A stretch of 64,000 nucleotides of DNA from the IMG/VR virus record IMGVR_UViG_3300016476_000523, positions 1 to 64,000 of that record, one strand, 5' to 3'. Below the pieces are notes generated by a model, which worked only from the letters and a program-made list of their open reading frames with translations, was not told where the DNA came from and did not search any database. Below are positions 9,301 through 56,023 of the stretch, one piece after another. The stretch is from an uncultured virus (IMG/VR IMGVR_UViG_3300016476_000523) (lineage: Duplodnaviria; Heunggongvirae; Uroviricota; Caudoviricetes). The translations under genes were made by a program, and so were the position numbers. Positions within the stretch are counted from its first letter, which is position 1. Every line of letters begins with the position of its first letter.

Positions 9301-12300
9301 TATTTGAATAACAAGTTTATTATTTGATGCGATTGCTCTTATGTTAGGGATATCATTAAGTACAGCAGCAACTGTTTGAGCATTGCCAACTGGAACACTA
9401 ACCATATATCCGTTTATTAGTAATGGACGACTTGTGATCACGTTACAATCACTGGTGCCGACCACTAATCCAAACTTAGCACCAGCGTTAGTATATCTGT
9501 ACACTGCCCCTTCTTCGCTATTTTCGTTAATTTCAAAAGGAGATCCTACTAAAATTTCAGTTCCAGACTGTGCTATATCAAGTGAATATCCAAATTGAGT
9601 ACCAACACGATTATTAAACTGACTATTAAAAGTTTGTACATAAGTGAAATGCTGACCACTTACTGTGAGTATATCACCAATAGAGTAATCACCAGAATAT
9701 ACTAACTTGTTTCCTACAACACCATAGTTGCTGTCTTGTACAAGAACACCATTTCTGTATACATAAAGGGAAGTAGTTTGTACATTTGCAGTAGTACCAG
9801 TAATTGAACCCTTGGTAGTGATAGAAAAAATATCAGCAGTTGATCTAGTAGTTTTTATAGTAATGTCACTGCCTGATATACTTCTAACATAATAAACATA
9901 GTTAGTTTCAATACCAGTGTCTGCTAAACCTGTACCAGAAAACATAATAGGATCATTTACGCTGATATCAGTAGTATTACTTAATGTAATCAAATTGCCC
10001 ACGGAATTAGTAGCACTTACTGTTTTGCTAACCGTGGTAGGTGTCCATGCTAACGTATTAATATTTGAATTTTCGATTTCAATATTCTGTACTGAGCGTG
10101 AGAATGCATATGCGCTACCCCAACTAGTGATGTTCACATCATAGTCTTTGTTAGGAGCTCCAATAACTACTACGTCACCGCTGTAGTTAGTACTAATTGA
10201 ACTACCAAAATTGTCGTTTGATACTGCGCCAACTGTGGCACCATCAATTTCTTCAGCAAACACATAACTAATTTGTGTTGCGGTGCCTGTACCTGTACCT
10301 ACACCAGTTGCTACGAAAGTTATACCTACTTTATTTTCGATTGCTCCTACTAGGGTGAAATCAGTTGTGCCTATTTCTGTTATTACATAAGTTTCACCTG
10401 AACTAAAATATCCAGCACTGAGTAAAACATTCTGCTTAGTATACGCATGTACTTTGTTGTTATCTATATCAGAGATATAAAGCCAATTACTATCTCCAGA
10501 CAATGCAATTGCACTACCCCAGTTAGTTACTCCGCCAGGTGCTGCGATTGTTTGGCAAGGTACAAAACTATTTGATAATTGACTATCATTTATAACGTAT
10601 ACATGAACTTCAGATGCAGTAGTTGGCTCAGAAATTACATAAGTGTTTTGTGCATATGCTATTTGTGAACCGAATGATGCGCCACCTGATAGTGTTTCAA
10701 CTATATTATATGCGTTAGAAGAGTTTTTAGTATAACGATAAACTTCACCTAATCCAGCGTCACTTACTAAGTAACCCGCTTGATCTGTGTAGGCAACTTG
10801 ACTACCGAAAGTTACACTTGATACTTTTGATAAATCGTTATCGTACTGATAGTTCAAGCTCTTTCTGTATACTTCCCAGCTTCCGCTAGTTCCTTCATCT
10901 ACCCATACTGTGTTCTTTACAAATTCAGCATCGATTAAAGGCAAGCTATTAATATCTGACGGCTTGTCCACTCGCTGTGACTGGAATGTTAATCCAATAC
11001 CTTGACCGCTAGTAGTTGTCACTGTAGTCACTGCTATAGGAATAATTACTTCAGTTAAACTAACTACATTTGATACCAAATAGTAACCATCGATGTTAGT
11101 AGCATAATTTATAATGGCTAGTGTGTCAGACTTTGACAATCCGTGAGGTTGTGCAAACGTTACTGTAGCAGTATTATTAGGATTAATTCTAACTGAAACT
11201 ACTCTGCCTACTTGTTTCCAAGTTAATACATCCCAGTTTCCTAAGTAATTTGCTAACCAAGCATAATCTCTAACATAGAAATCATTTATTGGCACTGGTT
11301 CATTATTTTTATTAACAGCAAGAGGCAATCCTGAATAGAAATAAGAAGACATTTTAACGTCATTAAAGTTTACATATCCAGCATCAGGGAATACTCTTGA
11401 AGGAGTATTAGGATCAATGGTACTTAAAATATCAACAGTATCTATTGGTCTGTTGTAATTGAACAACCCGTATATAGGTACTTCTTGTTGACTGCCTTCG
11501 GTAAATACTCCATTTGTTAAACTTACGATAGATGGATTGCTAGTAAGTTTTTGTTCATTTAGTCTAAAATCAACGAAGTTCTTGTTTAATATACCACCAT
11601 ATTCAGTAGTTTTAATTGCCCAGTTTTCATATACATCATATTCTATTCCGCCTTGAGGCAAATTAGCACCTTTAAATGCTTCTACGGAATTTCTTGTTCC
11701 TTTGTTCTTGATTAAATTCTGATATACATTAATTTGTGTAATATCAGTTAAGTCTACTAAATCTAAATAATCTCTAGGTCTGTATCCTATCAAAGAGAAG
11801 CCTAACAAGTCTGCGTCTCTTTCTAAGTTAGCTTTGTTCACATCGTAGTATAGTGAACTTTCATATGATCTAGTTGAAGAGTTTGGTAAGAGTCCCTTTT
11901 GAATTTGATCATAGTCGGTTTCTTTCCATTCTCTTTCATTGAACACTGTATTAGGCTCAATAACTTTTAAGGCTGTCCAGTATTTGTTCTTATAAAGAAC
12001 GATTGATCCTTTAGTGTACTTGACTGCTCTAGACCACTCTGTAATATTGTCTTGATTTAAAATAAATCCAGAAGCATTAATCGTACCGTTCCACTCAGCA
12101 GTTTTATTACCGCGAACATAAATTCTGCTTTGTCTTAATCCAGTAACTAAGTTATAAATTGTGTCGTTGAACAATGTTTCATTATCAAACACAATCGCGT
12201 GTTCAAAATTACTTAGATTAAATTGACCATAAGAAACTGAGTCTCCTTGATTTAATGCAGTAACACTAAACTCAGTGCCATCTCTAAACACACTCATGTC

Positions 12301-15300
12301 TTTTGCTTGTATTGGATACAAGTTTTGATTTAATACAAAGTTTGTGTTTTGTATAGTCAATGGTTGAACAATGGCATTCTCGCGGTTTATTTTTAGATTC
12401 TGTGCTGCTGGGTTTAATAAAACAATGCTTCCAACTTCCCAGCCAGTTTGTGACCAGTATAAAAACTCACTAATCATCAAATTCCAGTTTACTTCAAAAC
12501 CAGCCACTATGTCATTAAACTGCATACCCTGTGATCTTAGGTAAGCACCGTAACTAGCTAAGAATTGTGCTACTTCTTGTTCACTAAAGAATTTAGTACC
12601 ATATGGAACCAATACCTCAGTGTTAGAGTAATCAACAGCAATACGAACTTTTTCGTTTTCTATTTCAATGTTATTGAACTTACCGTTATTAACGGGCTTT
12701 AATGTTTTAAAGTACGCAGTAGTCTGTGAATTACCAAACACTGTATAACCATCTTGTGTTATTTGTACAACAACACCAGAATATACAATGCGATCAAATG
12801 GTTGATTATCGTATAACAACAATGAATAGCTTTCATCAGGAATTAACAAGGATGCGTTTCTGCTATTGGGAGTTCCTTTTTCTACATAGAACTTTAACAA
12901 ATCTTTATCACTGTACCCAGCTAAACGATATACCAATCTTACGTCTAAGTTATCTAGTAAAGTAGTGATGTTTTGAGTAGCGTTAATGCCTAGTTGTTTT
13001 TCGTAATCAACTATCCAGTTAATATAACTTGTTTTAGCAGTTCCTGAACCGTAAATTTCAACATCACTTATTACTAAATGACTTCTGTTGTTTACTAGGT
13101 ACTGGTTAAATTCTTCACTGTATTTGTAGTTGTCTAAGTCTACGCCCAAGTTAAAGAAGTTAGCTGGTTTCATTAATGCAAATATTCTCATCAAATCGAA
13201 TGGATAAGATGAACTTCTGCGATAGCTTAATTCAACTGGAGCATCATCTCCAACTTTCCAATCTCTTTGAAATGTATTAGCGTTATAGTTACCAACAATC
13301 GAAACAAATGGAGATACTAAATCACCGGCGCTATCTACTGGAATAATTTGTGTTAATCCAGGACGAGCAACTGCTTCTACTGTAATAGGGGTTCCGTTAT
13401 TCCAAATAATACCTTGTTCTAAGTCATTCCAAAGAACTAAGTTATCGCTGGTATAAGGAGCAGGACCATATCTGTCTGTCCACCAAGTTGGCTGATCAGT
13501 GAATCCTAACATTTCCCATGGTGTAGCATTTGGTGTAGTTGTATCATAGAAATATTGATACGCTCCTCTCCAATATCCTTGTTCTATTGGCTGTTTGTTT
13601 AACTTATTGGCTGAATTATAGTAATTAAATGTGTATTCATTTGTTTTTGAAAACACTTGAGTCTTGTAGTTTAGTCTGTTCTGGCCTACCCAATCCAAGA
13701 ATGTCTCGCTGTACATTTGCAAGAATTCACTATAGGTGTAATCAGTATCTCTAAAGAATCCTGGAAGAACTTCGTATGCCTGAATTGGAATAGTGTTGCT
13801 CAACTTGAGATTGTTATAAACTCTTAATTCAAATTCTAATAAACCTTGATCTCTAAAATCTTCTAAAGTGTTTGTTACTGTATCATAAGATCCATATAGC
13901 TTATTGTAAGAACCGTCGTGTCCTTTGATGAAATATGTAGGTTGAGTATAACCAGTGTCTAATACAACTTCTGGTTTAAACGCTGGGTACAATCCAAGCT
14001 TAGTTGGTGTATTAGGAACATAACTACCATAAGTCTTATTGTATTCTTTAACAGTAATTTGATCTCCTGCAATCAAGTCTAGTGTAACTGTTAGAGAAGG
14101 AGAATCTTGACTGATAATATAATCAACATTTCTTACTAACTGTTTTTGAATTCTAGTACCAGAAACTACTCTGGTCAAGTATACTAAAACACCGTTATAA
14201 TTTGCAGAACTAAAGTCATATATCTCAAACAATGGATATATGCTGGTATCTAAGTCATTTGCAAACACATAAGTATTGCTTCTAAAAGGAGACTTAGCTG
14301 GTATCATATCGCTCCAGAAGAACGCTTGTTCTTCGCTTTTTGAAGACGTAATAATATCTATAGCTTGATCTAAAATGTCTGCCGGTGTGTAACGCTGTAC
14401 GTATTCTGAATTGTTAATCGTATCCACTAACAAGTTCTTGAACTTGATGTATTCTCTGCTGTTGAACTTTAATGCATCAAATAAACTGTGTTCTGTTTTT
14501 CGTAAGAAAGTACCAGGCAATACCAGTGATGCACTGTTTTGAATTATCTTTGTACCGTAAGGAACTAGATTACCTAAATCTCTGTAATTGTTAGAACCAA
14601 ATACTTGTCCAATAATATTAGGAGCATTTACGTAGATATCTCTGTATTGCATTCTGATATCACCCACGTTTACTCTTTCTAAGTCTTGATTCAATGGGTT
14701 GTTACTCAAGTTAACTGGTATTGTGTAATACGCTTGATTGCTAATTTGATTACTAAAAACTAGAATTTCTATTGGCGTATCTTCAGTTAACGAACTAGTG
14801 TTCAACAACTCAACAATAGTTGAATTATCAGTTATTGTATATGTGTATTGAGTTATACACTGGCATGCATTGTTTACATAAACTTGTACACTAGACCATG
14901 ATTCGCCAGTTTCTTCAACAGCAGCGATGTCACATACAAAGGTTGAGGTAGGATCATCCTTTAAATATTCAAACTGAAAAACTTGATACTGCTGACTGTT
15001 AGCAACCGCAGTTTGCCATCCTAATTCTCTAGTGTAATCAGTTCTAGTATCGTAGTTGTAAACATAACCTGTATTAACTTTTTGTGTTATCGGTGTTGTA
15101 CCAGAAACATAATCAAATGTATCTAGGTTTAATGAAACGTCAAAGCTAATATCTCCTACGTTTTCTACTGCGCTATAGCGAATAGGGAAACCAAGTATTG
15201 GATCATCTGTTCCAGTACCTATGCCATATGAAAATAGTTTGCATCCACGGAAAGAAGTACCTTCATAAAGTGAGGTGTCACTAAAGCTAATACCATTTTT

Positions 15301-17583
15301 ATCGAATACATCAAATAATGGAGCTTGATTTACTGTAACTTTTTCTTGTGCTAGTTTCCAATCGTCACCATCGAAGTAATAGCTATTTCCTTCGTTATTG
15401 TATCCACGCAAAATAACAGTTTGATTGTCTTGTTCACAATCGCCATCTATTGCTTTAGTAAGTGTAATTACTGGAGTAGAAGAAGGTGTTAATTGAGATA
15501 TACCAACTACATAAATTTTGTTTCTAACATTCAAGTCAGTATCGTCAGCAAATATAATTCGTGCGCCATCAAAAACACCATAACTGTTGGTAGTTTCGTC
15601 AGTGGCTACTATTGCAGCGTCAGTAGTTGCATTAACTGTTTGTGATGTTCCCCAAGAAATCGTCAATACAGTATCACTACCAGATATAGTAATTAGAGTA
15701 ATCTGTGAATTTACAGGCAAAACGTTCATATAATCAGAAACATATTGTCCTACTTGGAATGTACCTACTATATCATTAGTTGGAATAGTTATCGTAGTTG
15801 ATGTTCCTGTAACGCCTGCGATATTAGCAGCATTACTAGTATAAACTTCTACATCAGGGTAGTAGTTATACAACCCTGCTACTTGTGATAGCGCATCAGT
15901 TGAACGTGTATCAATAAAGTCTACTGCGTCTTTTCCTACAGTTCCTGAATTGAACAATTTTAGATTAGGATAGAATTCAATAATAGGACGCTTTGCTTTA
16001 TTAGCTGCATTGGCAAATTGTGTTACGATATCAGGATCGTTATTGTATACAGCAGTTTGATTAATTACTTGTGAATGGAACCAACGATTGCTTCTAGACC
16101 ATGCATTTTTGTTTATTGCGTTTCTTGCTATCGTAATGTAATCAATGTCTATAGGCACAAACAAGTTACTGTCAAAGTTTCCAATATCAAAAGGTGTCGT
16201 GTCGTATGGCACAAACGCGCCAGAAGAAAATTCTTCAGGCGACACTAAACTCTCTACTGATACTAGTTCTATCGCAGTACCTACACCTTCAACATAATAT
16301 TCGCCAGAAAGATAGCTAGATGGAATAACGTCACCAACGAATTCAACTTTCAATCCGTTTGTAAACACAACACCATTGCTTGAAGTGTAATTCTTTTTAC
16401 CTAATATATCTAATTCAACATTAATAGCATTTGTATTATTACTTTCAATAAGTTTAATAACACCTACTTTATTTGGAGAGGTGCCATCTTGATAATATAG
16501 TGTGTCGAGTGTTGCAGTAATATAAGGAATTAATGTGATTATTCCTAAAGGACTTCTATAGAAGTTTCTGTTTATCCAAGTTGTTCCATATGACACTGTT
16601 ATCTTTTGTTCGTTAGGAATTAGCGTAACGGGAGTAAGGCTAATCACATCGCTAACTACAGATATTTGGTAGAAATATAATGATGCTGCTGGTTCATTAG
16701 TGTTATAGAACATAACAGTCAAACCATTAATGGATGTTATGCCATCAATTGAACCAATAGAAGTAAGTGTAGCACCATTTAGTGTTGCGTATGGGATAGT
16801 TGATACTAAGTCAACTAAGTTGTTACCAGGGAAAATATATTGGTTCTGAGCGTCTTTGCTAGGAACAGTAAACGAAACAGTTCCTTGTGTTGCCCCGTTA
16901 TTAGTAACACCCAACACATCTCTTACGTTTAAATTGGTTTGTGTTGGACTAAATCCAGAAACACCTGGTTCACCTTGAATCCAAAACTGAGTATCTTGAT
17001 CAACATTAAACTCATACACTCCGCCACGCAGTAATGTAATAGTAGGGTTGATATCATAATCAGTTGTTTCTAAATCAGTAATTTCATACCCGTCATTCAA
17101 ATCTGTTACAGTATATTCGTTTGTTGAATACACTAGTGCAGCCGCTATAGTGACAGCAGGTGGACCTTCAGGAATCCAGTAGTATTGACTAAAGTTTACT
17201 ATCTTGTCCAAGTTAGTAAAAGAATCCCAAGAATAAATCTGACTTTCAAATAGTCGTGAATTATTATCAACAACACCGCCCTGAAGTTCTAGTGCGTCTA
17301 GTATTCCAGGGTAACTGATAAAATCTTGTGCAACTGACTGATCTGGTTTTGTAAAGACTACACCAGGTTCAAGTTGATAATCAGTTCTAGTTTTATTAGG
17401 TTCAGTAACGTAATAATCGTTTGCATTAACACCATAACCTATCTTGCTACCAATATACCCTTGAATCTTTTGGACCACGGGAGGATTAACAAGTTGATCT
17501 AGTGTTGCTGCCAAAAACTCAGCATTAGTTTTTGTTTGAAAAATTTCTGGAAGAAAATTTAAAGTTCTAACTCTTGTTGTCAT
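361..17583 (-). CDS. Giant (5,740 aa) baseplate wedge/virion structural protein in the gp7-like position, with FG-GAP-like propeller motifs and repeated beta domains
   Basis: Uninterrupted ORF directly after gp6. Contains wedge-like EVKPYH motif, FG-GAP-like motifs (DNFGSSIS..VVIGAP; QFGYSLD..ILVGSP), a CBM-like WSRAVKYTKGSIVLYKNKYW segment and repeated 'P.VF.G...GGI...YYV..I.D...FTIS.T.GG' units. Confidence 0.75.
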   Translation of the reverse strand: MTTRVRTLNFLPEIFQTKTNAEFLAATLDQLVNPPVVQKIQGYIGSKIGYGVNANDYYVTEPNKTRTDYQLEPGVVFTKPDQSVAQDFISYPGILDALELQGGVVDNNSRLFESQIYSWDSFTNLDKIVNFSQYYWIPEGPPAVTIAAALVYSTNEYTVTDLNDGYEITDLETTDYDINPTITLLRGGVYEFNVDQDTQFWIQGEPGVSGFSPTQTNLNVRDVLGVTNNGATQGTVSFTVPSKDAQNQYIFPGNNLVDLVSTIPYATLNGATLTSIGSIDGITSINGLTVMFYNTNEPAASLYFYQISVVSDVISLTPVTLIPNEQKITVSYGTTWINRNFYRSPLGIITLIPYITATLDTLYYQDGTSPNKVGVIKLIESNNTNAINVELDILGKKNYTSSNGVVFTNGLKVEFVGDVIPSSYLSGEYYVEGVGTAIELVSVESLVSPEEFSSGAFVPYDTTPFDIGNFDSNLFVPIDIDYITIARNAINKNAWSRSNRWFHSQVINQTAVYNNDPDIVTQFANAANKAKRPIIEFYPNLKLFNSGTVGKDAVDFIDTRSTDALSQVAGLYNYYPDVEVYTSNAANIAGVTGTSTTITIPTNDIVGTFQVGQYVSDYMNVLPVNSQITLITISGSDTVLTISWGTSQTVNATTDAAIVATDETTNSYGVFDGARIIFADDTDLNVRNKIYVVGISQLTPSSTPVITLTKAIDGDCEQDNQTVILRGYNNEGNSYYFDGDDWKLAQEKVTVNQAPLFDVFDKNGISFSDTSLYEGTSFRGCKLFSYGIGTGTDDPILGFPIRYSAVENVGDISFDVSLNLDTFDYVSGTTPITQKVNTGYVYNYDTRTDYTRELGWQTAVANSQQYQVFQFEYLKDDPTSTFVCDIAAVEETGESWSSVQVYVNNACQCITQYTYTITDNSTIVELLNTSSLTEDTPIEILVFSNQISNQAYYTIPVNLSNNPLNQDLERVNVGDIRMQYRDIYVNAPNIIGQVFGSNNYRDLGNLVPYGTKIIQNSASLVLPGTFLRKTEHSLFDALKFNSREYIKFKNLLVDTINNSEYVQRYTPADILDQAIDIITSSKSEEQAFFWSDMIPAKSPFRSNTYVFANDLDTSIYPLFEIYDFSSANYNGVLVYLTRVVSGTRIQKQLVRNVDYIISQDSPSLTVTLDLIAGDQITVKEYNKTYGSYVPNTPTKLGLYPAFKPEVVLDTGYTQPTYFIKGHDGSYNKLYGSYDTVTNTLEDFRDQGLLEFELRVYNNLKLSNTIPIQAYEVLPGFFRDTDYTYSEFLQMYSETFLDWVGQNRLNYKTQVFSKTNEYTFNYYNSANKLNKQPIEQGYWRGAYQYFYDTTTPNATPWEMLGFTDQPTWWTDRYGPAPYTSDNLVLWNDLEQGIIWNNGTPITVEAVARPGLTQIIPVDSAGDLVSPFVSIVGNYNANTFQRDWKVGDDAPVELSYRRSSSYPFDLMRIFALMKPANFFNLGVDLDNYKYSEEFNQYLVNNRSHLVISDVEIYGSGTAKTSYINWIVDYEKQLGINATQNITTLLDNLDVRLVYRLAGYSDKDLLKFYVEKGTPNSRNASLLIPDESYSLLLYDNQPFDRIVYSGVVVQITQDGYTVFGNSQTTAYFKTLKPVNNGKFNNIEIENEKVRIAVDYSNTEVLVPYGTKFFSEQEVAQFLASYGAYLRSQGMQFNDIVAGFEVNWNLMISEFLYWSQTGWEVGSIVLLNPAAQNLKINRENAIVQPLTIQNTNFVLNQNLYPIQAKDMSVFRDGTEFSVTALNQGDSVSYGQFNLSNFEHAIVFDNETLFNDTIYNLVTGLRQSRIYVRGNKTAEWNGTINASGFILNQDNITEWSRAVKYTKGSIVLYKNKYWTALKVIEPNTVFNEREWKETDYDQIQKGLLPNSSTRSYESSLYYDVNKANLERDADLLGFSLIGYRPRDYLDLVDLTDITQINVYQNLIKNKGTRNSVEAFKGANLPQGGIEYDVYENWAIKTTEYGGILNKNFVDFRLNEQKLTSNPSIVSLTNGVFTEGSQQEVPIYGLFNYNRPIDTVDILSTIDPNTPSRVFPDAGYVNFNDVKMSSYFYSGLPLAVNKNNEPVPINDFYVRDYAWLANYLGNWDVLTWKQVGRVVSVRINPNNTATVTFAQPHGLSKSDTLAIINYATNIDGYYLVSNVVSLTEVIIPIAVTTVTTTSGQGIGLTFQSQRVDKPSDINSLPLIDAEFVKNTVWVDEGTSGSWEVYRKSLNYQYDNDLSKVSSVTFGSQVAYTDQAGYLVSDAGLGEVYRYTKNSSNAYNIVETLSGGASFGSQIAYAQNTYVISEPTTASEVHVYVINDSQLSNSFVPCQTIAAPGGVTNWGSAIALSGDSNWLYISDIDNNKVHAYTKQNVLLSAGYFSSGETYVITEIGTTDFTLVGAIENKVGITFVATGVGTGTGTATQISYVFAEEIDGATVGAVSNDNFGSSISTNYSGDVVVIGAPNKDYDVNITSWGSAYAFSRSVQNIEIENSNINTLAWTPTTVSKTVSATNSVGNLITLSNTTDISVNDPIMFSGTGLADTGIETNYVYYVRSISGSDITIKTTRSTADIFSITTKGSITGTTANVQTTSLYVYRNGVLVQDSNYGVVGNKLVYSGDYSIGDILTVSGQHFTYVQTFNSQFNNRVGTQFGYSLDIAQSGTEILVGSPFEINENSEEGAVYRYTNAGAKFGLVVGTSDCNVITSRPLLINGYMVSVPVGNAQTVAAVLNDIPNIRAIASNNKLVIQIIDDNLTQVNKRLVITATNTLTLSELGLEVYSETQVINAPHNFGPTQFGLAIKFNEYDSVVISAPVSSRYEGTTFDFVDDEFYQNDTIFDNNATQFVETSPNAGAVYMFDYIANYNESLTNIGKFVYAQSVNSKDIEYGYSPKYGESIDFNQNVVMVGAPNFNPEAIDGQVTVYENETGIKDWTVFRSSAPIVDIDSIQNAQIFSVESNNTLINLDYIDPLQGKLLGSVRQNIDVVSSVDPANYNNVGNTQSGMIWGASKIGNVWFDTKNVRFVNYHQNDVVYNSQYWGTVFPGSDVAVYSWIASNVPPSEYEGPGTPKDITNYTVSSRLDSSNAVVPVYYFWVRNTNIVFRQEGKTLSDTIIESYIKNPIKSGIAFVAPLKQNTFAIYNSGEYINANDSVFHIGYANGTTDDEAHVEYTLIREDFADDFLPGIPKLGSTAMPEGLYDRLLDSLSGVDEAGSVVPNPFLPKAVQSGIFSRPRQSFFYDRYLALKNYLTYANEVLTQFPISEIRPDISFLFAKGEFYDTTNYWQYINWWSPGYNNSTKPAIQVPIYADLSALTVPTNTIVEVENNGSGRFEFYRYDGNNVWTRIGLQNGTIEFNLVLWDYAEARLGFGDNFYDTDTYDEYPSEETRNIIRALNEQIYIEELLIFRNKGLILLFEYIQSESIESQNYLPWLNKTSLVDVAHTIRELKPVEVFQTDNQDFLEGYLNEVKPYHVVIKEFVFKYTGSETYNNQVTDFDLPAEYNSSVQQFITPELVYTIPNSTSEYQNTNDIWQTAPYTQWYQNKGVSLSGQPDYQITTLTTYMTIGSNVMFVDNAQGFPINGVIKIGDEEIAYSSVDRALNMITGLSRGLNGTTATVHYPNDKIYIDLPEVLVLDGGRGYTEPPRITAYIDLDQYPAPTKEAILEPVMSLDSVISVNVIDPGQGYMVLPEIRIEPSTVIAITNSNINSQLHTIVTNTSALQTGDLVFYRAGENQAGVGKLLNNQWYYVNVLETVPTTSFALYTNYSDAINDTNRVLITDIGFDDAITLSLGARASAISSATPIRENNITVRFDRTSYTSQVQDWRAGVYYGSFFAGSYFNSATVASSSIELAYEQVLPVPLIASIQASAQGAVFEIADVTNDRQLTWSSFERTVGSTQAGNVIRLIPEASTDHASGSTIGFYVGMPIKFTGIVIGGLQEDTTYYVKTIIDDTDFTVSLTEGGSTEVLTPSSAVGAGLKCYTGQVTDTAVLTVNYPGILEATSTQSGTNAITVPLNLIGTGGTQGFYTNLPVFFVGDVFGGIEENETYYVTTVIDKQRFTISQTPDPVITIALSTSGASIITVDSTEGFNTNDAIIFTNITVAGSSSTTLGNIVAGTTYYVREVISDTELTISAAINGVLFNTGTVAAAANTAAQITSQAKTVKLTTDTGSMTLNVSLPISPGQVNGQKFTLYNTSGQYANITGTNGNIIERIAAATIADVDRIPISIATIGLDDFYVNMPVVFDTTVGGITAATTYYVIEYSGMPNLELTVTDTTDTTNEITCNDTSSLYVGMPVSFSDALGGIDADTVYYVESIVDGTNFTITTTPGGSPLVLSTDTGSIVCTCEPNSSDMPNIQVLVTSTSSSGNAITCNSTESLYVDMPIVFSGAGIGGIVISVEYYIESIIDGTNFTISDTPGGSVKTLITQTGSMVGVGTPYIKVSLTKGGAPIGLTDTVGDFDLIQEILSNAVFDISYILGGYRAIVSTAGEGYAVNNTISIPGNLIGGITPENDLLLTVNSIDSDGEITDVVCSGVVSDQEQQYYLKVVSPNELEVYSDPLMTVPVSGVGFIYDGFTTTTATEIVAATNQITVSSSDDFNVNDPVVFTGNIFSTEIELGKTYYIYDKPLTTTVRLTTNPGGTVIDFTINASGSMTMAKAGSYAFLPEPFYFNQSIVKYQGRVYVCVVSNNDNEFVIGKWQLIEPSDRRLNAMDRAIAYYQPTVNMPGVDLTQLFTGVTYPNTTYLGNPFAPADQYELDVLLESQPFDNNTFDYDIQGGEFLSGYAPEELVAGVVSDNLTMIVNTRPGTNWDADEYAHTGFKVISLELEPEFPAQVEYSFNNATQYPFEIFVAVIDGTTGVSTTIYENIDYTIDWINNVVVLDAALTYAPVKDILRIDVYETGNGDQLVRSNSKTDPIRINTGTGFNEIFLNCNYSASLFAGSGAIRPTTGADIEATETVAASDTIVCDNVGDLILNGPIRFFGSVFGGIVANKQYYVKSIDYIGDTITISETTVNGVAGPIFALSNALGSMLIQVEGSVWSDPLVYHNGNKLLIGTTSTAISTKSSNNAIVVVAGANKLIENSPIKFCQCMFGNDILPMTTYYVKTVINDTEFTISDTQGGSVKVLSDATGTSMFVSNDYAIGLADNNVSAKLIFAEPYNSTDDYLAYTIFGETDPIQYGYSIPETQIILGDGANTVFTLTNFVGKDNVTDAIVEIDGLRVVPADYTIDSNLDTITFSGTPGLNSVIAVTTFNDTQRQYLNTQSITVTSTEVVSSIQSISTEITPPLATTRATSSTAGAPNEITVDSTTGFVVNSTVQFKGTSFDANILTDGTVYFVDTIVSPTVFKIKDENGSVIVTAGGTGAMQVVVGGTPATRVTTNTAHGFSENDVVRIDGTLGSVQLNNNTYYAKIIDSVTFDLYETGILGYTGYDPAVGAINYPVTGVSNYIGDGYTWIASSYTITSVWDQVNTDRLWVTVNGYRVPSSSLVINENNELSILTSIANGDEVVITSMMPYASPDEEIYLNFVNKNGIASVYRANTGTRTWLTQSIQDLSTEIYVDDVSRLVRTIVQTETTPAVDSGFYYIGLAADKRLITSVTVFNQTTNQLLSSDDYQIVVENLSPTLKITAGAYITTGDQLTITILEGNTVYINGEQIRFGAVDFDNNTLSNLERGVNGTSKQPLISTYTEVYGLLSANRLNDVYYNQTWNSNIFNVADGDPLQISQTAAAEFLNTDIIE

Positions 17584-31961: not shown

Positions 31962-32702
31962 ATGAATATTTATCACGAAACCGTACCCTACTTATATAAG
32001 TGGACTCAGTTATCAACAAAAAAATGGTACATAGGTTCTAAAATACGCCAAGGATGGAATCCCGGGCGACATGAAGAATATATATGTTCTAGCAAAATAG
32101 TTAAACCGATGATTATAGAAAACAGATCAGATTGGGTTTATGAAATATTATGTATAGGAGAAGCCGATTATATTAAAAATCTTGAAAAATCAATGTTGGT
32201 TTTTCTTAATGCTAAAGATGACCCTCACAGTTTTAATCAACATAACGGCGACGGAATCTATAATAGATTTGGAATAAAAGAAAGTAACGAAACTAGAGAA
32301 AAGAAACGATTAGCTCATCTAGGAGAAAAAGGATCAATGTACGGTAAGCGGGGACCATTATGTCCTCATTACGGAAAAAAATACTCTGAAGAAAGACGAA
32401 AAAATCAAAGTATTGGTACAAAAAAGTATGCCGAGAGGCGGCCTCAAACTCACAATGATAATATTAGTAAATCGTTGTTAAAAAATCCTAAATTGTCGGA
32501 AGCTAAAAAAGGAGAGAAAAATCCTATGTATGGTGTTCCTGCTTCTGATTATAATAAGTCGATGACTAAACTTAAAAATTCAGGTGATGGCAATCCTATG
32601 AGAAATCCTAAATACCAAATGATATGTCCTCATTGTAATCGTTCTTTTGCCAAAAGTAATTATAATCTTTGGCATGGCGACAAATGCAAAAAGAAAATTT
32701 AA
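31962..32702 (+). CDS. Free-standing GIY-YIG homing endonuclease with NUMOD3-like repeats and a C-terminal zinc finger
   Basis: YLY...WYIGS...YICSS catalytic region; ETREKKR and GEKNPMYG (NUMOD3-like) repeats; CPHC...WHGDKCK tail. Confidence 0.85.
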   Translation: MNIYHETVPYLYKWTQLSTKKWYIGSKIRQGWNPGRHEEYICSSKIVKPMIIENRSDWVYEILCIGEADYIKNLEKSMLVFLNAKDDPHSFNQHNGDGIYNRFGIKESNETREKKRLAHLGEKGSMYGKRGPLCPHYGKKYSEERRKNQSIGTKKYAERRPQTHNDNISKSLLKNPKLSEAKKGEKNPMYGVPASDYNKSMTKLKNSGDGNPMRNPKYQMICPHCNRSFAKSNYNLWHGDKCKKKI

Positions 32703-32731: not shown

Positions 32732-33280
32732 ATGACTTCACCACAAAAAGCTAAAGGCTCTTCATTTGAACGAGAAGTAGCAAATCATTTGACAAAGCTA
32801 TACAGCGAACGCTTTATTCGTGCTCCTGGCTCTGGTGCATATGTTGGCGGGAAAAATCAATCTCGCAAACAAATGCTACACGAGGGCCAAGTGCGTAGCT
32901 TCAAGGGTGATATCGTACCAGGACAAAGCTTTACAAAGTTTAACGCAGAATGCAAGTCATACGCCGACTTCCCATTTCATCAAGTTCTAGCAGGTAGCTG
33001 CAAGCAACTTGACAGTTGGTTGAATCAACTAATGGATGTTGCTGATGAAGGTGACTTAAACATCTTGTTTGTTAAAATCAATCGTAAAGGTAGATTTGTC
33101 GGGGTTCAATCGAAGTACACATGGGTCACTGACCAATTTATGTACTATACATCACAAAATCACGGGGATTGGATTCTTGTGGATTTTGATCATTTTTTTA
33201 GTTACAACAAAGACCTTCTTAAAGCATATTCAGGCTCAAATTCAAATAACAGTAGTACAACAGACACCACGTCAGAGTAA
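32732..33280 (+). CDS. Holliday junction resolvase-like PD-(D/E)xK nuclease
   Basis: KAKGSSFEREVA...R.PGSGA...GDI...ECK motif arrangement of Hjc-type resolvases. Confidence 0.8.
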   Translation: MTSPQKAKGSSFEREVANHLTKLYSERFIRAPGSGAYVGGKNQSRKQMLHEGQVRSFKGDIVPGQSFTKFNAECKSYADFPFHQVLAGSCKQLDSWLNQLMDVADEGDLNILFVKINRKGRFVGVQSKYTWVTDQFMYYTSQNHGDWILVDFDHFFSYNKDLLKAYSGSNSNNSSTTDTTSE

Positions 33281-33289
33281 TTTTAGGCA

Positions 33290-33770
33290 CCACAATTCGT
33301 TTAGTCGGGGCACCTCGACTCTCCTTGAAACTGCTAGCTTAGTGCTATAGCCGTTAGATTCTGGAGTATGCGTAGATCAATGATCTACGGAACACCGACA
33401 GGGCTCTCGTTATGTGTGCGAACCCTGAATGAGTCTATATCTTATTCTGTCTTGCGGATATAGAACATGCGTTGCTGAAGAATCAATGAGCATTTGCTTA
33501 TACATTGATCAGCTTCAACTACAGTCCCGACTAGTTTTATCTAGACCTTACAGAGCAACCGGTGGCGTTAGGTAGCAAAAACCGCTAACTCTAACGGGGA
33601 ACAGACGGCAAAGGCGAGGGGCCGCAAGGAATCTTACCAGTGGTAGTGCTTTACAGCACTACCATGGCTTCAAGACTGCAATGATTAACTAAACCCCCGC
33701 AGATATAAATGAATCAATATGATACCGAACGAGTACCACGAGTGAAGGTATCAGTTGTCTGAAGGACAAC
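33290..33770 (+). ncRNA. Candidate large structured non-coding RNA (strand inferred)
   Basis: About 480 nt with no credible ORF in a gene-dense genome, visibly GC-richer than the flanks, at least 9 local hairpins and several long-range complementarities (see findings). Confidence 0.7.
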
Positions 33771-33947
33771 TTAGAAGTAGGGTAAATTTGACTTCTTTGT
33801 GATTTCTAAATGTTCTCCGATTAATCTGTTTATTTCCGTTCTTTCATCAATAGACATATTAAGAATATCTTCATAAGTAGCACCACCGCGCATATTCCAT
33901 GCCATGGCTAAGGCTGACTTCTTAATAGAAATAACATCCTTTTCCAT
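33771..33947 (-). CDS. gp51-like small baseplate/tail assembly protein; probably also the -1 frameshift extension of the upstream gp26-like gene
   Basis: MEKDVISIKKSALAMAWNMRGGATYEDILNMSIDERTEINRLIGEHLEITKKSNLPYF* (58 aa; not in the ORF track). Frame is open upstream to the slippery site at 34001-34007. Confidence 0.75.
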   Translation of the reverse strand: MEKDVISIKKSALAMAWNMRGGATYEDILNMSIDERTEINRLIGEHLEITKKSNLPYF

Positions 33948-33994: not shown

Positions 33995-34819
33995 TTAACC
34001 GAAAAAATCAGAAACATTAAGCGTAAATGGTTGCTTGTATTCGTGACTGCAATTTGCACACTTAACATCTAATGGTTTTAGTTCTGTTTTTGCTTTTAGA
34101 TTGGTATGATATTCTTTAATAGTATCATATACACCTTTATCGCAATTCTGTAGATATTCAATAATATGATGAAAGTTGTTTACTCTAGACTCTGGAGTTT
34201 CAATATATCTAATTGTTGATGCAATCAACTTCGTTGTAATTTCTGTTATTCTAATCAATGTTGTTTTTGTTGCTTCTCTTTTTTCTTGTTCATCGGTAAT
34301 CTGTTCGATTTGTGTTAATGTTTTTTGTATTTCAAATTGCAACAAATTCACTTCATTCATTTGCTGATAAGTAAGAGGTCCAAATTTTATCTTTAAATCT
34401 CCGCTACTTAATGGCTCATCATAGTCAGGTGCAGTAAGGGTTGTCAAAATTGCAGTCAAGTCTAAATCATATACACTAGATTCTTTACAAGCTGGACATT
34501 CTGTTTTGATTTCTAAGTTTTGAGATCCTGATGCAGCTCTGATAGCTATCAATACAGCATCTAAATCAGAATTTGAAATTTGCCATGGATCAATTATATC
34601 AGGAACACAACTTCTTATTAACTCTACAACTGCACTGCCGTTGTACAAAGCGTCTGGTGTTTTTGTAGTAATTTCATCAATTGCTGTCATTGGATAAACT
34701 GGTAGTTCACCAGTTTCTGTTTTGTTGATTACGCCTTCAGCATAATCTTTACCGTTGCTAGGTAATCTTAAGTATACTGCTGGTCTTCTAAAATATTGTT
34801 TGAGTGGATTGTTGCTCAT
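33995..34819 (-). CDS. Baseplate hub assembly chaperone, gp26-like
   Basis: LPSNG..Y, PMTAIDE, DLDAVLIAIRAAS, CPAC and CANC zinc motifs; ends in DFFG. Confidence 0.8.
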   Translation of the reverse strand: MSNNPLKQYFRRPAVYLRLPSNGKDYAEGVINKTETGELPVYPMTAIDEITTKTPDALYNGSAVVELIRSCVPDIIDPWQISNSDLDAVLIAIRAASGSQNLEIKTECPACKESSVYDLDLTAILTTLTAPDYDEPLSSGDLKIKFGPLTYQQMNEVNLLQFEIQKTLTQIEQITDEQEKREATKTTLIRITEITTKLIASTIRYIETPESRVNNFHHIIEYLQNCDKGVYDTIKEYHTNLKAKTELKPLDVKCANCSHEYKQPFTLNVSDFFG

Positions 34820-38940: not shown

Positions 38941-38973
38941 CAAAAAGATAAATAATACAAAAGGGTAATTAAA

Positions 38974-39204
38974 ATGAAGCTAGTAGAAATGTTTGAACCG
39001 CCTATCAGCGGATATCAAGAGGTTGATCAAGACAACTCTAAACCTACCTGGAAAGCTTCTAGAAAAACTAAACTAACCCTAAAGCAAATCAGAAAATTAA
39101 GAAAAATGCTTGATGTTAGACAATACGAACGTCAACAGCATTTAAAAAAAGTTAGAAAACAGTATGGAGCTAAACCTGAAGAAGGTGCTTCACCTGGTCT
39201 ATAA
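38974..39204 (+). CDS. Small basic head-module protein (prohead core-like)
   Basis: 76 aa, RKTKLTLKQIRKLRKM; GATAAATA upstream; lies between the portal and core genes. Confidence 0.65.
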   Translation: MKLVEMFEPPISGYQEVDQDNSKPTWKASRKTKLTLKQIRKLRKMLDVRQYERQQHLKKVRKQYGAKPEEGASPGL

Positions 39205-39323
39205 ATTGTGAAATTTTCACTAATTCCACCGAAAACTTAAAAAATACGCACTTATTACACTGTTTTTAGAGATACAGTCTAAATACTTTCACAACAAAGC
39301 CATTTCTTTCTAGGAGACTAATA

Positions 39324-47792: not shown

Positions 47793-50062
47793 TTATGTAT
47801 ATTGTAAGTATATATCGCCGTCATTTCCGCCAGTCGGTGCAGCAGTTCCTGATGTAATTACTGTTCCTACACCAGAATATCCACTGATACCTGACCAACC
47901 GCTAGTGCCACTAAATCCACTGAAACCACTGAATCCAGATATGCCTGAATAACCACTAAACCCAGATATGCCGCTAAATCCAGATACACCGCTAAATCCA
48001 GAATATCCACTTATGCCTGAATAACCACTAAATCCAGATACACCGCTAAATCCAGAAATTCCACTTATACCTGAGTATCCACTAAACCCCGATATGCCGC
48101 TAAATCCAGATATACCCGAGTATCCAGAAGTACCAGCACCAGTTGCACCTGTTTCTCCTTGAATACCTGAATATCCAGAGATTCCACTGAAGCCAGATAA
48201 TCCTGATTCACCTGAAAACCCAGAGATTCCGCTGAAGCCACTGAATCCAGAAAAACCACTAAACCCAGAGATACCACTGTAGCCACTAATCCCACTTATA
48301 CCGGTAGCACCAGTTGCACCTGTTATTCCTGCACCTATTGGAGTAATAACATATGATTGACGAACATTGCCGTCGTGTGTAAATCCACCGGTTACATCAG
48401 ATGAAGATGTAGTCTGAAAATATACTTTTGTGACTAGTCTATCTGTTAATTGCATTGGTATAGCAGATGTTATGAATTCTGAAAAGTTAAACAATGTAGG
48501 GACAGTAGCGTTTATTTCCCCAGTGTTGAACGTGAATAACTGGGTCTCGGTATTAGAACTTGTGGTATCTACTTTGAATGTGGTTATGTTAAAACTGCTA
48601 TTACCGTCAGTGTTACTAACATCTAACCACAAGTACCAATTAAGTTGCCCTACCGGGATAGAAGTAATACCAGGTTCATTAATATTAGTAGCGAATCCTT
48701 CGATTAACACTGAACCTGATGTATTATTTGCAGTAGCAGTCATTGTTTCTTCTGAACCAAGACTTGGGTTTATTGTAAATTGTTCATATGGCTGACTGGT
48801 AGCAGGATTAATCAAATCACTCGCTATAGAATTGAAGTAATATGTTCTACCTTGAGTCGAGTATCCCCTTTCTCCTGAATAACCTGAAATACCACTAAAT
48901 CCACTAATACCACTGAATCCAGAAAATCCACTGATGCCTGAATATCCAGAAAATCCACTGATACCTGAATATCCAGAAATACCAGCACCAGTTGCGCCTG
49001 TTTCTCCTTGAATACCTGAGAATCCGCTTGCACCTGAATAACCACTTATACCTGAGAAACCACTTATACCTGAGAAACCACTAGTGCCAGAAATACCAGA
49101 GAAGCCACTTGTACCTGAATATCCACTGGTGCCTGAATAACCAGAAATTCCACTAATACCTGAAAAGCCACTTATACCTGAAAACCCAGATATACCCGAA
49201 TAACCAGATATACCCGAATAACCAGATATACCAGAGAAGCCGCTTATACCAGAGAAGCCACTTGTACCTGAATAACCAGAAATTCCACTAATACCTGAAA
49301 ACCCAGATATACCAGAATAGCCACTGATACCCGAGAAGCCACTTGTACCTGAATATCCACTGGTGCCTGAATAACCAGAAATTCCACTAATACCTGAATA
49401 TCCACTAAACCCAGATATTCCACTGAATCCAGAAATACCTGAGAACCCCGATATGCCGCTATGTCCTGAAAGCCCAGTGGCACCTTCGATACCTGNNTAC
49501 CTGTAGCTCCAGTGGCACCAGTAGGGCCTACAAATCTCCCTATATTATTCCATAATGATCCGTTATAAACCCAAAGATCACCTGCTAAATTATCTATTGC
49601 ACCATCACCTGAAACCGCACTAGGAAACGCAGTGTTTAGCACTTCTTGTGGATTATCAGGTGGCACAACATTTACGTCAGGAACTGAACCTATTAGAGTC
49701 AATGATGTACCTGCAGGACCCGTAGCACCTGTTTCTCCTTGAATACCTGAATATCCAGAGAAACCTGATATACCCGAGAAGCCACTTATACCACTGATAC
49801 CAGAATAGCCACTGATACCCGAGAAGCCACTTATACCACTATAACCTGAATAACCAGATATACCTGAGTATCCAGAAATACCAGCACCAGTCGCACCTTG
49901 AATACCGCCATATGGTAATGAGTTCCAAGGCGTTACTCCATTACCTATCTTGAATAAGTTTGTGTTAGTTTCGATTCCCATCTCGCCTGATGCAAGTATA
50001 GGGTTAGCATCAGCCCACTCAGTAGATGTCCCTCGTCTAAATTGAAATTGAATATTTGGCAT
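47793..50062 (-). CDS. Mtd-N-domain fibre protein with (S-G-X)n repeats; one gene split in the ORF track by an NN assembly gap
   Basis: Starts QFRRGTSTEWADANPILASGEMGIET..FKIGNG.TPWNSLPY (Mtd N-terminal-like). After NN at 49496-97 the SG-repeat frame resumes in the frame of ORF 47793..48815 and ends SGTAAPTGGNDGDIYLQY. Confidence 0.75.
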
Positions 50063-53383: not shown

Positions 53384-56023
53384 ATGGCTTTAAAATTATT
53401 TAACTCAGCATCAGGATTCTCAGTAAGTCTTACTGCGGTCACTGTAATTGATGCTGATGCTAATGTATATGCTAATAATTTAGCAGTCATTGGAAACGTG
53501 AGTTTTACTGGTACTGATATTAATTTAGGTTCAGTAACAAATATTCATATCTCAGGCGGCACATCAGGATATCTATTATCAACTGATGGTTCAGGAATAT
53601 TATCATGGGTCTCTCCCACATCGGGGCCTCAAGGTACATCGGGATTTTCTGGTATTAGTGATTACTCTGGTTACTCAGGATTTAGTGGGTATTCGGGTTA
53701 TAGCGGATTATCCGGCTTCAGTGGCATAAGCGGTTTCTCGGGCATATCTGGATTTTCTGGCCAAAACGGAACAATAGGAGTTGATGGTGCAACTGGTGCT
53801 ACTGGTATTTCTGGCTTTAGTGGAATTAGTGGATTCTCAGGCGTATCCGGCTTTAGTGGCATCTCCGGCTACTCAGGCTTCTCAGGAACGAGTGGATTCA
53901 GTGGCTTTTCAGGTATTTCTGGATTTAGTGGTATTAGCGGATATTCAGGTGAATCAGGTATTTCTGGATTCTCAGGCATATCTGGCTTTTCTGGCCAAAA
54001 CGGAACAATAGGAGTCGATGGTGCAACTGGTGCAACTGGTATCTCAGGCTTCTCAGGAACGAGTGGATTCAGTGGCCTTTCAGGTACATCTGGTTACTCA
54101 GGCATAAGTGGCATAAGTGGCATAAGTGGCTACTCAGGTACTTCTGGTTTTAGTGGTATCAGTGGTTATTCTGGCATATCTGGCTTTAGTGGTATCAGTG
54201 GTTATTCTGGCATAAGTGGTTTTAGCGGCACGGGGGCAACTGGAGCAACCGGTCCAATAGGCGATAGATTCTCGACTACATCGACGACTTCTCTTACTAT
54301 ATCAACTGGAATACAAAATTTAACTGTGGAAGCAGGATTAGCGTACACCATTACACAAGATGTTATGATCGCATATGATGTTAACAATCACATGCAAGGC
54401 GAAGTTCAGTCATATAACATTTTGGATGGATCACTTTCTGTAAATGTTATCACAACAGTAGGATCAGGAACTTATTCATCATGGACTGTTAACATCGACG
54501 GTGCAGTGGGTACGCCTGGAGCAACTGGTGTTAGTGGTTATTCAGGTATCTCCGGCTTTAGTGGTATCTCCGGGTACAGCGGTATATCTGGTTTCTCAGG
54601 AATATCAGGATTTAGTGGAATAAGTGGTTTCAGCGGCTTCTCTGGTAGATCAGGATTTTCAGGCTTCTCAGGTATAAGTGGTTATAGTGGCGTAAGTGGT
54701 TATTCTGGTATATCTGGCTTCAGCGGCATAAGTGGCTACAGTGGTATATCCGGATTTAGTGGAATATCAGGATTCTCAGGTATTAGCGGCTTCTCCGGTA
54801 TTTCTGGCACTAGTGGTTTCTCAGGTATAAGTGGTTATTCAGGTGCAAGCGGATTCTCAGGCATATCAGGATTCTCAGGCGCAGTAGGTGCTACAGGCAT
54901 AAGTGGTTTCAGTGGTATTTCTGGTTTCAGTGGTATTTCTGGTTTCAGTGGCTTCTCAGGTAGATCAGGATTCTCAGGCATTTCTGGATATTCAGGTATA
55001 TCTGGCTTCTCTGGCATTTCTGGATATTCAGGTATATCTGGCTTCTCTGGTATAAGCGGTTTTTCAGGTATCAGTGGCTTCTCTGGCATTTCTGGATATT
55101 CAGGTATATCTGGCTTCTCTGGTATAAGTGGTTATTCAGGTTTTTCAGGCAGATCAGGTTTTAGTGGCATTAGTGGATTTTCAGGTATATCAGGTTATAG
55201 TGGAATATCTGGATATTCTGGAACGAGCGGTTACTCGGGAGCAGTTGGTGCGACTGGTCCGATAGGTGGTAGTAATACTCAGATCATATTTAACGATGCA
55301 GGAACGGCGAATGGTAGTGCTAATTTAACGTTTGATAAGACTAGCAACATAGTAACTATACTAGGCAACTTGGGTATAGGAACTTCCACTCCGACATTTA
55401 AACTTCATGTATTAGATACAGCAAGCGGAGATGGAACATTTGCCGGCGGCATTCTAGTAGAAAACTCTAACGTAACCGCTGGTGAATCTGTAATTGCATT
55501 TAAGAATGCTAATACAAGTGCAAACTATTGGTTTTCTGGAATAAACCAAAGTAACAACTACTCACTAACTTACGGAACTGTACTTCAAGATGCTAATACC
55601 AAACTAACATTAACTGCTACTGGTAACTTAGGTTTAGGTACCACGACTCCTGTTTACAAACTAGAAGTTAACGGTTCATTCGCTGCAACTACTAAGTCAT
55701 TCGTAATTGATCATCCAACTAAGCCTGGTATGAAACTAAGATATGGTAGCTTAGAAGGACCAGAGAATGGTGTTTACATCAGAGGAAGATTAACAAATAG
55801 CAATATAATAGAATTACCTGATTATTGGAGTAAGCTAATCGATCCTGAATCCATTACAATACAACTTACACCTATAGGCTTACATCAAAAACTATTTGTA
55901 GAATCAGTGTCAGTAGATAAAGTAATAGTTGGAAATGAAAACTTATTTAATAAAACAGTTGATTGTTACTTTATCATATTCGCAGAAAGAAATGATGTAG
56001 ACAAATTACAAGTGGAGATATAA
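53384..56023 (+). CDS. Fibre protein with long (S-G-F/Y/I)n repeats and a C-terminal chaperone-like domain
   Basis: Two SG-repeat blocks; GNLGIGT..P..KL.V units; C-terminal KSFVIDHPTK...LRYGSLEGPE..VY.RG domain. Confidence 0.75.
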   Translation: MALKLFNSASGFSVSLTAVTVIDADANVYANNLAVIGNVSFTGTDINLGSVTNIHISGGTSGYLLSTDGSGILSWVSPTSGPQGTSGFSGISDYSGYSGFSGYSGYSGLSGFSGISGFSGISGFSGQNGTIGVDGATGATGISGFSGISGFSGVSGFSGISGYSGFSGTSGFSGFSGISGFSGISGYSGESGISGFSGISGFSGQNGTIGVDGATGATGISGFSGTSGFSGLSGTSGYSGISGISGISGYSGTSGFSGISGYSGISGFSGISGYSGISGFSGTGATGATGPIGDRFSTTSTTSLTISTGIQNLTVEAGLAYTITQDVMIAYDVNNHMQGEVQSYNILDGSLSVNVITTVGSGTYSSWTVNIDGAVGTPGATGVSGYSGISGFSGISGYSGISGFSGISGFSGISGFSGFSGRSGFSGFSGISGYSGVSGYSGISGFSGISGYSGISGFSGISGFSGISGFSGISGTSGFSGISGYSGASGFSGISGFSGAVGATGISGFSGISGFSGISGFSGFSGRSGFSGISGYSGISGFSGISGYSGISGFSGISGFSGISGFSGISGYSGISGFSGISGYSGFSGRSGFSGISGFSGISGYSGISGYSGTSGYSGAVGATGPIGGSNTQIIFNDAGTANGSANLTFDKTSNIVTILGNLGIGTSTPTFKLHVLDTASGDGTFAGGILVENSNVTAGESVIAFKNANTSANYWFSGINQSNNYSLTYGTVLQDANTKLTLTATGNLGLGTTTPVYKLEVNGSFAATTKSFVIDHPTKPGMKLRYGSLEGPENGVYIRGRLTNSNIIELPDYWSKLIDPESITIQLTPIGLHQKLFVESVSVDKVIVGNENLFNKTVDCYFIIFAERNDVDKLQVEI

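Follow-up and report, generated by a model that had tools for sequence, protein, structure and literature searches.

The locus and its relatives

The window analysed here, 64,000 nucleotides (nt) long, comprises positions 1–64,000 of IMG/VR record IMGVR_UViG_3300016476_000523 (75.6 kb in full), from an uncultured virus of the Caudoviricetes. At 33281–33770, the exact interval between two convergent stop codons (that of a PDDEXK_15 nuclease gene at 33280 and that of a baseplate-hub chaperone gene at 33771–33773), lies a non-coding element that is conserved, occurs in single copy and is under selection for an elaborate fold of one of its strands. A preliminary description, made from the letters of the window, had proposed an undescribed, structured phage noncoding RNA (ncRNA) of about 480 nt at this position. 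The proposal has stood, with conservation and covariation in more than 100 relatives and no match in Rfam. The element and the genes leading up to it are as follows.

27843, + strand: late sigma factor gene, gp55-like
28796, + strand: gp47 (SbcD)
29812, + strand: gp46 (SbcC)
31962–32702, + strand: NUMOD3 homing endonuclease gene, between gp46 and the PDDEXK_15 gene
32732–33280, + strand: PDDEXK_15 resolvase-like endonuclease gene (Pfam PF24608, E 4e-25), directly upstream of the RNA and in the same orientation
33290–33771, + strand: predicted ncRNA gene, ~480 nt, filling the gap between the two stop codons
33771–34819, − strand: gp26/51-like baseplate-hub chaperone gene (Pfam T4_baseplate) with a predicted −1 frameshift extension (slippery run and open −1 frame)

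Relatives were collected from IMG/VR in two ways. With gp51 as anchor, 244 relatives were confirmed and 80 loci retained, and in 77 of these the RNA is found by blastn just downstream of gp51 with 60–89% nucleotide identity, while the gp51 protein itself is only 45–66% identical. The three loci missed are one that is cut at a contig end and the two most distant of the set. A scan for the motif of an invariant hairpin (P11, below) supplied at least 120 further loci. A profile hidden Markov model built from the first alignment matches 198 of 203 loci, including all 120 of the listed motif loci. Altogether there are 101 unique full-length copies, 55–86% identical to that of the window (median 61%), with 72 invariant columns that lie mostly in junctions and in P11. 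Conservation begins ~10 nt before the first hairpin (P1) and stops with the terminal one. In each of five large records out of five (250–525 kb, three estimated to be complete), model R1, which describes the core of the RNA, has exactly one match. The predicted RNA is common to hundreds of uncultured giant T4-like phages. Two motif matches in GTDB (L082, L083) were rejected as chance, their best profile E-values being 0.043 and 0.4 and confined to the motif itself; about two chance matches are expected there by a rough estimate.

The interval contains no internal open reading frame (ORF) of more than 48 amino acids (aa). Its G+C fraction of 0.44–0.485 exceeds that of the flanks (0.28–0.39), as the preliminary description had remarked. 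That description also called it the only long ORF-free stretch of the window; it is the longest, but other ORF-poor gaps occur at 38941–39323 (~380 nt) and 48816–49243 (~430 nt). Under translation table 11, all 101 full-length copies have stops in all six frames, and this remains so in 101 of 101 if TGA is read as W and in 97 of 101 if TAG is read as Q. The longest frames vary in place, strand and phase among the copies, leaving no shared ORF, and a period-3 substitution signal is absent from the column entropy (the period-3 power ranks 92 of 210). A protein-coding gene, in the standard or a stop-reassigned code, is ruled out by the stops together with the lack of a period-3 signal. On the opposite side, the chaperone ORF (33995–34819, − strand, 274 aa) has its stop at 33995–97, and a T TTT TTC run at 34007–34001 precedes this stop by six bases. 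Beyond the run, the −1 frame is open for a 78-codon extension that terminates at 33773–33771. What had been listed as a '58-aa ORF' is probably the frameshift tail of this chaperone.

Covariation and architecture of the RNA

A consensus fold was computed with RNAalifold from 51 of the 58 unique gp51-anchored copies, excluding six that are cut at contig ends and one near-duplicate. This gives 63 pairs, 41 of them with compensatory changes. A measure of covariation that is independent of any fold, the G-test with average product correction, computed for every two columns of the 101-sequence alignment, places Watson-Crick partners at the top of its ranking, both pseudoknots among them, and includes two long-range helices that cannot be fitted into any nested fold. 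For the core (positions 33386–33612), alignment A2 was reduced from the 101 copies to 51 representatives with less than 86% mutual identity. Here 96.2% of cells are paired, compared with 79.6% after shuffling (0 of 500 shuffles attain the observed value) and 32–40% when partners are slid, and changes occur on both sides in 47 of 56 pairs. Over the full length (101 pairs) the corresponding values are 88.9%, 76.5% and 36–42%, with compensatory changes in 72 of the 101 pairs; this count rests on a MAFFT alignment, in which hairpins of variable length are badly aligned, and its weak helices (P1, the tip of P4, P9 and P12) are all of that kind. About 16 helices are supported by covariation.

The supported pairs comprise 7575 cells, of which 238 are G.U and 46 are A.C. 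Since G.U outnumbers A.C, the + strand, which is the sense of the nuclease gene, is taken as the folded strand, and the five-fold excess indicates that pairing is selected in RNA rather than in duplex DNA.

The RNA can be divided into a 5′ domain (P1–P4), a four-way junction (P5–P8) and a 3′ domain with P11, a linker and two terminal hairpins. Its elements, all on the + strand, are listed below.

33303–33320, +: hairpin P1, variable in sequence with pairing kept; 6/6 pairs change on both sides; 71.5% of cells paired (MAFFT, poorly aligned)
33321–33366, +: 5′ domain, 96.7% and 91.4% paired
33321–24 (CUCC) / 33363–66 (GGAG), +: helix P2, nearly invariant in clade 1, CACC/GGUG in clade 2
33327–30 / 33354–61, +: helix P2a
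33333–36 / 33348–51, +: hairpin P3
33371–33389, +: hairpin P4, of variable length; 6/6 basal pairs compensatory
33393–33564, +: four-way-junction core, P5–P8 (alignment A2)
33393–97 / 33560–64, +: helix P5, 99.2% paired
33399–33427, +: hairpin P6, 99.6% and 100% paired
33429–33468, +: hairpin P7, 98.9% paired; 11/11 pairs compensatory
33471–76 / 33554–59, +: helix P8, 94.8% paired, enclosing P9 and a conserved internal loop
33477–33516, +: variable hairpin P9, inside P8
33447–33452 (P7 loop) / 33603–33608, +: pseudoknot PK1, 99.0% paired; 5/6 pairs change on both sides
33525–28 (UCCC) / 33597–33600, +: pseudoknot PK2, 94.6% paired; 4/4 pairs compensatory
33445 (P7 loop) – 33524, +: single pair, CG 28, UG 12, UA 9, GC 2
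33566–33596, +: hairpin P10, 95.5% paired; 10/11 pairs compensatory; followed by the 3′ strand of PK2
33641–33664, +: hairpin P11, 10 bp, stem sequence invariant, loop of 4–8 nt variable; 98.6% paired, 6/10 pairs never vary
33680–33719, +: A-rich linker, variable in length and sequence
33720–33753, +: hairpin P12, distal part conserved and G/A-rich; 87–95% paired when locally realigned, 49% in the global MAFFT alignment
33754–33770, +: terminal hairpin P13, 100% paired; 5/6 pairs compensatory; abuts the convergent stop codon; probable 3′ end or terminator of the RNA

The two pseudoknots tie the P7 loop and the internal loop of P8 to the strand 3′ of P10, and in PK1 the exchanges are between well-represented states (UA 35 and CG 15 at one pair, GC 27 and AU 23 at another). 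RNAalifold also proposes a helix 33617–24 / 33665–71, a candidate that shows almost no variation. A helix closing the whole RNA was sought between the 5′ leader and the 3′ linker and rejected: cognate duplexes average −4.24 kcal/mol against −4.34 for non-cognate ones (p = 0.69), and no helix joining the two ends of the RNA is found by this test.

Much of the local structure had been seen beforehand in the single sequence. Eight of the nine stems then listed are kept in relatives (33303–20, 33371–89, 33399–427, 33434–64, 33566–96, 33641–64, 33720–53 and 33754–70), seven with compensatory changes and one, 33641–64, invariant and without covariation. The ninth, an arm at 33471–519, is correct in its inner hairpin, which is real though variable, but 33471–76 pairs with 33554–59 and not with 33510–14. 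The long-range pairings fared worse. The supposed CTTGAA/TTCAAG closing helix is contradicted by position 33329, which covaries with 33355 and not with 33669. In place of the GCCGTT/GACGGC pairing, 33348–55 pairs locally with 33329–36, and GACGG at 33604–08 covaries with the loop 33447–51. The 3′ half of the AGATTC/GAATCT pairing is conserved only in close relatives of the window. A pseudoknot had been suspected from the crossing of the last two of these helices; the suspicion was right in kind but wrong as to the partners, which are 33447–52/33603–08 and 33525–28/33597–600.

Genomic setting, the second clade and known RNA families

The phage is T4-like in its core genes. The window encodes the baseplate wedge proteins gp25 and gp53, the gp55-like late sigma factor, gp47/gp46 (SbcD/SbcC), the gp51-type hub chaperone, the portal protein gp20, a prohead protease, the major capsid protein gp23 and collagen-like fibres. 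Its nearest cultured relatives are the giant phages PA5oct, Phosso, Atu_ph07 and the Rak2 group, with a gp51 identity of only ~30%. One open frame (361–17583, − strand) runs to 5740 aa, a great length even by the standards of giant phages. Collagen repeats are present in fibre-like genes at 47793–48815, 49244–50062, 53384–56023 and 57456–61223; one of these genes begins with an Mtd_N (major tropism determinant) domain, a hint of a diversity-generating target. The slot of the NUMOD3 gene (31962–32702) is empty or holds other ORFs in relatives, and is a variable insertion point.

Of the 68 clade-1 loci that have sufficient flanking sequence, 64 have a PDDEXK_15 gene directly before the RNA, its stop codon falling 0–30 nt ahead of P1. 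The other four loci have an ORF of 148–150 aa in this slot, with a SegE-type GIY-YIG domain in L012. A GIY-YIG gene also occupies the slot in the two most distant gp51 loci and in L208, an IMG/VR relative of Phosso, and in these three it is followed by a diverged RNA of about 430–490 nt, here called clade 2. The clade-1 profile matches the 5′ domain (E 5e-5 in L052, 4e-8 in L262) and the 3′ hairpins of clade 2, and the clade-2 profile in return matches the 5′ domains of clade 1 (27 matches among the 101 sequences, best E 2e-10). The 5′ domain is the part best conserved between the clades (nhmmer E 4e-8, 2e-10); on the clade-2 RNA, core model R1 gives only E 0.06, so that homology of the two cores is likely rather than established. 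By blastn, an RNA of the L052 type is present in 27 of 80 loci anchored on the GIY-YIG gene, a gene with at least 596 relatives in IMG/VR.

Both clades have in common a small nuclease gene that immediately precedes the RNA and reads in its direction. The gene preceding it may differ: in L052 it is a radical-SAM/SPASM gene (L052 7820–8779, − strand) and not SbcC, the SbcCD genes not adjoining. Because of this substitution, the constant feature of the locus is taken to be 'small nuclease, then RNA'. In the three complete genomes the RNA lies at 162, 346 and 99 kb, separated from the nearest tRNA genes by 54, 71 and 94 kb. These complete relatives (G001, G004 and G005, 360–525 kb) have 33–53 tRNA genes each, in one or two dense arrays.

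The RNA matches no catalogued family. When the 64-kb window was scanned with the 4227 models of Rfam 15, there were no matches at the gathering threshold, and at E<=10 only three chance matches to C/D small nucleolar RNAs, of which the one that falls within the element reaches 14.1 bits where 75 would be needed. Twenty diverse members scanned at E<=5 have no match in common. Neither gathering nor relaxed thresholds thus give an Rfam assignment. The preliminary description had recognised no tRNA, transfer-messenger RNA (tmRNA), RNase P RNA or group I/II intron. For tmRNA, which is marked by a tRNA-like end and a tag reading frame, ARAGORN makes no call (0 tRNA and 0 tmRNA in the window) and there is no Rfam tmRNA match. 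RNase P RNA, which the Rfam models detect by its conserved P4 core, is rejected on the lack of a model match at E<=10 and of a helix joining the ends, and group I/II introns on the lack of a model match and on the position of the element, between convergent stop codons and with no flanking exons.

Cultured phages have provided no counterpart. Three members compared by blastn with 50,697 phage records gave no match, and model R1, which found five of five family genomes, has no match in the whole genomes of PA5oct, Phosso, Atu_ph07 and Melnitz. The equivalent loci of PA5oct, Phosso and Atu_ph07 have no significant nhmmer or R1 match, and Melnitz has no gap after its GIY-YIG gene. The four ncRNAs that the PA5oct report (PMC7318152) describes lie elsewhere than its PDDEXK_15 locus. 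A literature search that included two 2026 preprints, and whose scope ended short of bioRxiv supplements, returned no published description of the RNA.

In PA5oct (L204), the ~1.5 kb beside the PDDEXK_15 ('RusA-like resolvase') gene, 5026–6538, contain four annotated ORFs of 38–50 aa and a 660-nt gap. Phosso (L205), a cultured phage of 469 kb, has an ORF-free stretch of ~1 kb (5733–6746, − strand) between its RNase HI and PDDEXK_15 genes. This is the same neighbourhood as that of the window RNA (gp51, a resolvase-like gene and recombination genes), but the stretch has double the length of that RNA and is divergent from the nuclease gene, and neither the profiles of the two clades (nhmmer) nor R1 indicates homology. 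Motif resemblances between the two that were noticed by eye were discarded, as they are not conserved in L207 and have no profile match. Between Phosso and its IMG/VR relative L207 (5564–6581) the stretch is 73.5% identical over 1047 nt. Several of its hairpins show compensatory changes, and the last of its features is a hairpin resembling a terminator. The stretch is a candidate for a second large structured RNA in this neighbourhood.

Several large RNAs offer points of comparison. Like GOLLD and ROOL, the window RNA is phage-encoded, hundreds of nt long and without an ORF, has many helices and pseudoknots defined by covariation, and has neither an assigned function nor a known protein partner. 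It differs in matching neither model, even at E<=10 on either strand, and in its position after a small nuclease gene in T4-like giant phages. GOLLD and ROOL often sit near tRNA islands, as described in Kretsch et al. 2025 (PMC12286853), in contrast to the window RNA, whose nearest tRNA genes are 54–94 kb away in the three complete genomes. With the omega-RNAs it shares a long, highly structured form and a place directly beside a nuclease gene in the same orientation, but the nucleases here are of 135–200 aa and of PDDEXK_15 or GIY-YIG type, not RuvC nucleases, and there are no transposon ends, no evident guide segment and no HEARO match. The omega-RNA/HEARO of IscB and TnpB is a long structured RNA encoded directly beside the nuclease gene, and HEARO is among the Rfam models. 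RNase P RNA and tmRNA are large pseudoknotted RNAs as well, and tmRNA is known from some huge phages. The window RNA resembles these in size and in its pseudoknotted core, and its phages carry large tRNA sets, but it has no Rfam match, no tmRNA call by ARAGORN and no end-joining helix.

Proposed mode of action and significance

Taken together, the element is almost certainly a real structured RNA under selection, and very probably represents a new RNA family. The explanation that best accounts for the whole, and which we consider rather probable, is a gene for an ncRNA of about 480 nt, of an uncatalogued family, that would be released from a longer transcript and act in trans. The RNA would be transcribed rightward as the last element of a recombination unit consisting of the gp55-like sigma factor, gp47, gp46, the small nuclease and the RNA. 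Because the nuclease stop codon is too close to P1 for a promoter to fit in, it would be a distal part of the recombination transcript, probably cut out of it within the conserved A/U-rich bases that precede P1, and it would end at P13, abutting the convergent gene. It may then act as a compact, stably folded particle, that is, as a scaffold, a protein-binding RNA or an RNA-only assembly similar to ROOL and GOLLD, without antisense pairing. The invariant P11 stem would be the likeliest contact site for a partner, since the invariance of its sequence suggests specific recognition by a protein or another RNA. That the RNA is such a scaffold, ribonucleoprotein or RNA-only assembly, rather than one of the alternatives considered below, is a tentative choice made by analogy.

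Several observations weigh against this explanation. The single sequence folds better than its shuffled versions whichever strand is taken, but the margin is wider for the − strand (z −4.16) than for the + strand (z −2.69). The variable hairpins P1, P9 and P12 are only 49–72% paired in the global MAFFT alignment. In the P11 stem alone, G.U (16) and A.C (15) show no asymmetry, and this stem taken by itself could equally be a DNA palindrome. A search of sequencing runs for the sequence gives 24 entries, all of them DNA metagenome contigs and none RNA; the transcript, its ends and its strand are predictions from sequence alone. A scan for promoter and terminator consensus sequences found none usable at the boundaries of the RNA: promoter-like sites in the region number 2 against 2.9 expected, neither placed to serve the RNA; the T4 late-promoter motif TATAAATA is not enriched in the window (3 against 9.4 expected); and no T-run qualifies P13 as a terminator. 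The assignment to a scaffold or ribonucleoprotein rests on analogy, no computed result here pointing to the role of the RNA.

The alternatives differ in which features of the locus they explain. The proximity of the nuclease gene, which in 64 of 68 clade-1 loci directly precedes the RNA and reads the same way, with a stop codon 0–30 nt before P1, would be accounted for if the RNA were a partner of the PDDEXK_15 or GIY-YIG enzyme, directing, scaffolding or regulating its cutting as omega-RNA does with TnpB and IscB. An unrelated nuclease fold (SegE-type GIY-YIG) occupies the same slot in L012, L052 and L208; the association of RNA and small nuclease outlasts other synteny, since L052 has a radical-SAM gene and no adjoining SbcCD; and a long ORF-poor stretch adjoins a PDDEXK_15 gene in two cultured phages as well, PA5oct and Phosso. 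However, RNA type and nuclease type do not change together, clade-1-type RNA being found with either fold (L012), and a variable single-stranded guide is not apparent, variability in the RNA being confined to hairpins and the A-rich linker. Both nucleases are plausibly interchangeable Holliday-junction resolvases that end a recombination operon, and a partnership of this kind appears unlikely. Slightly less probable still is its strongest form, an RNA-dependent recombination or anti-host nuclease particle of an undescribed kind in which a 480-nt pseudoknotted RNA would set the substrate choice of a catalytic domain of 135–200 aa. The absence of space for a promoter, the filling of the whole gap between convergent stops and the terminal hairpin abutting the opposite stop codon are also what would be seen in a cis-acting 3′ element of the recombination or the convergent late operon (an mRNA stabiliser, processing platform or insulator) that has no function in trans. 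Such an element we regard as unlikely too, as neither termination nor 3′ protection calls for anything near the ~16 helices, the pair of pseudoknots and the dozens of unpaired invariant bases that are maintained at 55–60% identity.

A ribozyme, with the pseudoknotted core and its invariant unpaired bases as a catalytic centre for self-processing or pre-tRNA processing, would fit the complexity of the fold, whose pair of pseudoknots, four-way junction and 72 invariant columns clustered in junctions are typical of large ribozymes, and the 33–53 tRNA genes of the three complete genomes. It is made improbable by the lack of any match to RNase P, group I/II intron or small-ribozyme models, even at E<=10, by the absence of an end-joining helix (p = 0.69) and of flanking exons, and by tRNA arrays that are 54–94 kb distant; moreover, most of the large RNAs of bacteria that were at one time candidate ribozymes are not known to be catalytic. 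Least probable by some distance is an element of a replication origin, which the preliminary description had offered as an alternative. It could be a DNA structure, or else a structured transcript that serves as primer or forms an R-loop, as ColE1 RNA II and the origin transcripts of T4 do. The element does adjoin recombination and replication-restart genes, and the comparable ORF-free stretch of Phosso is followed by an RNase HI gene. A DNA origin is disfavoured by the excess of G.U over A.C (238 against 46) and by the lack of iterons or direct repeats inside the element; a globular, pseudoknotted fold is unlike known primer RNAs, and GC skew carries no informative signal.

The RNA represents a genuine new family of large, pseudoknotted phage RNA with a well-defined structure. 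It is new in being unrelated to any catalogued RNA family, whereas large ornate phage RNAs as a kind have precedents. The usual list of large ornate bacterial and phage RNAs comprises OLE, GOLLD, ROOL, HEARO and raiA, and new classes are rare. All of these have led into new biology, HEARO to RNA-guided nucleases, and ROOL and GOLLD to RNA-only nanocages. With more than 100 diverse sequences and a two-pseudoknot model backed by covariation, in vitro folding, cryo-electron microscopy and binding tests could proceed without a cultured host. The RNA keeps one genomic position throughout a group of giant T4-like phages that is abundant although uncultured, and its constant place behind a small nuclease gene provides a concrete, testable hypothesis.

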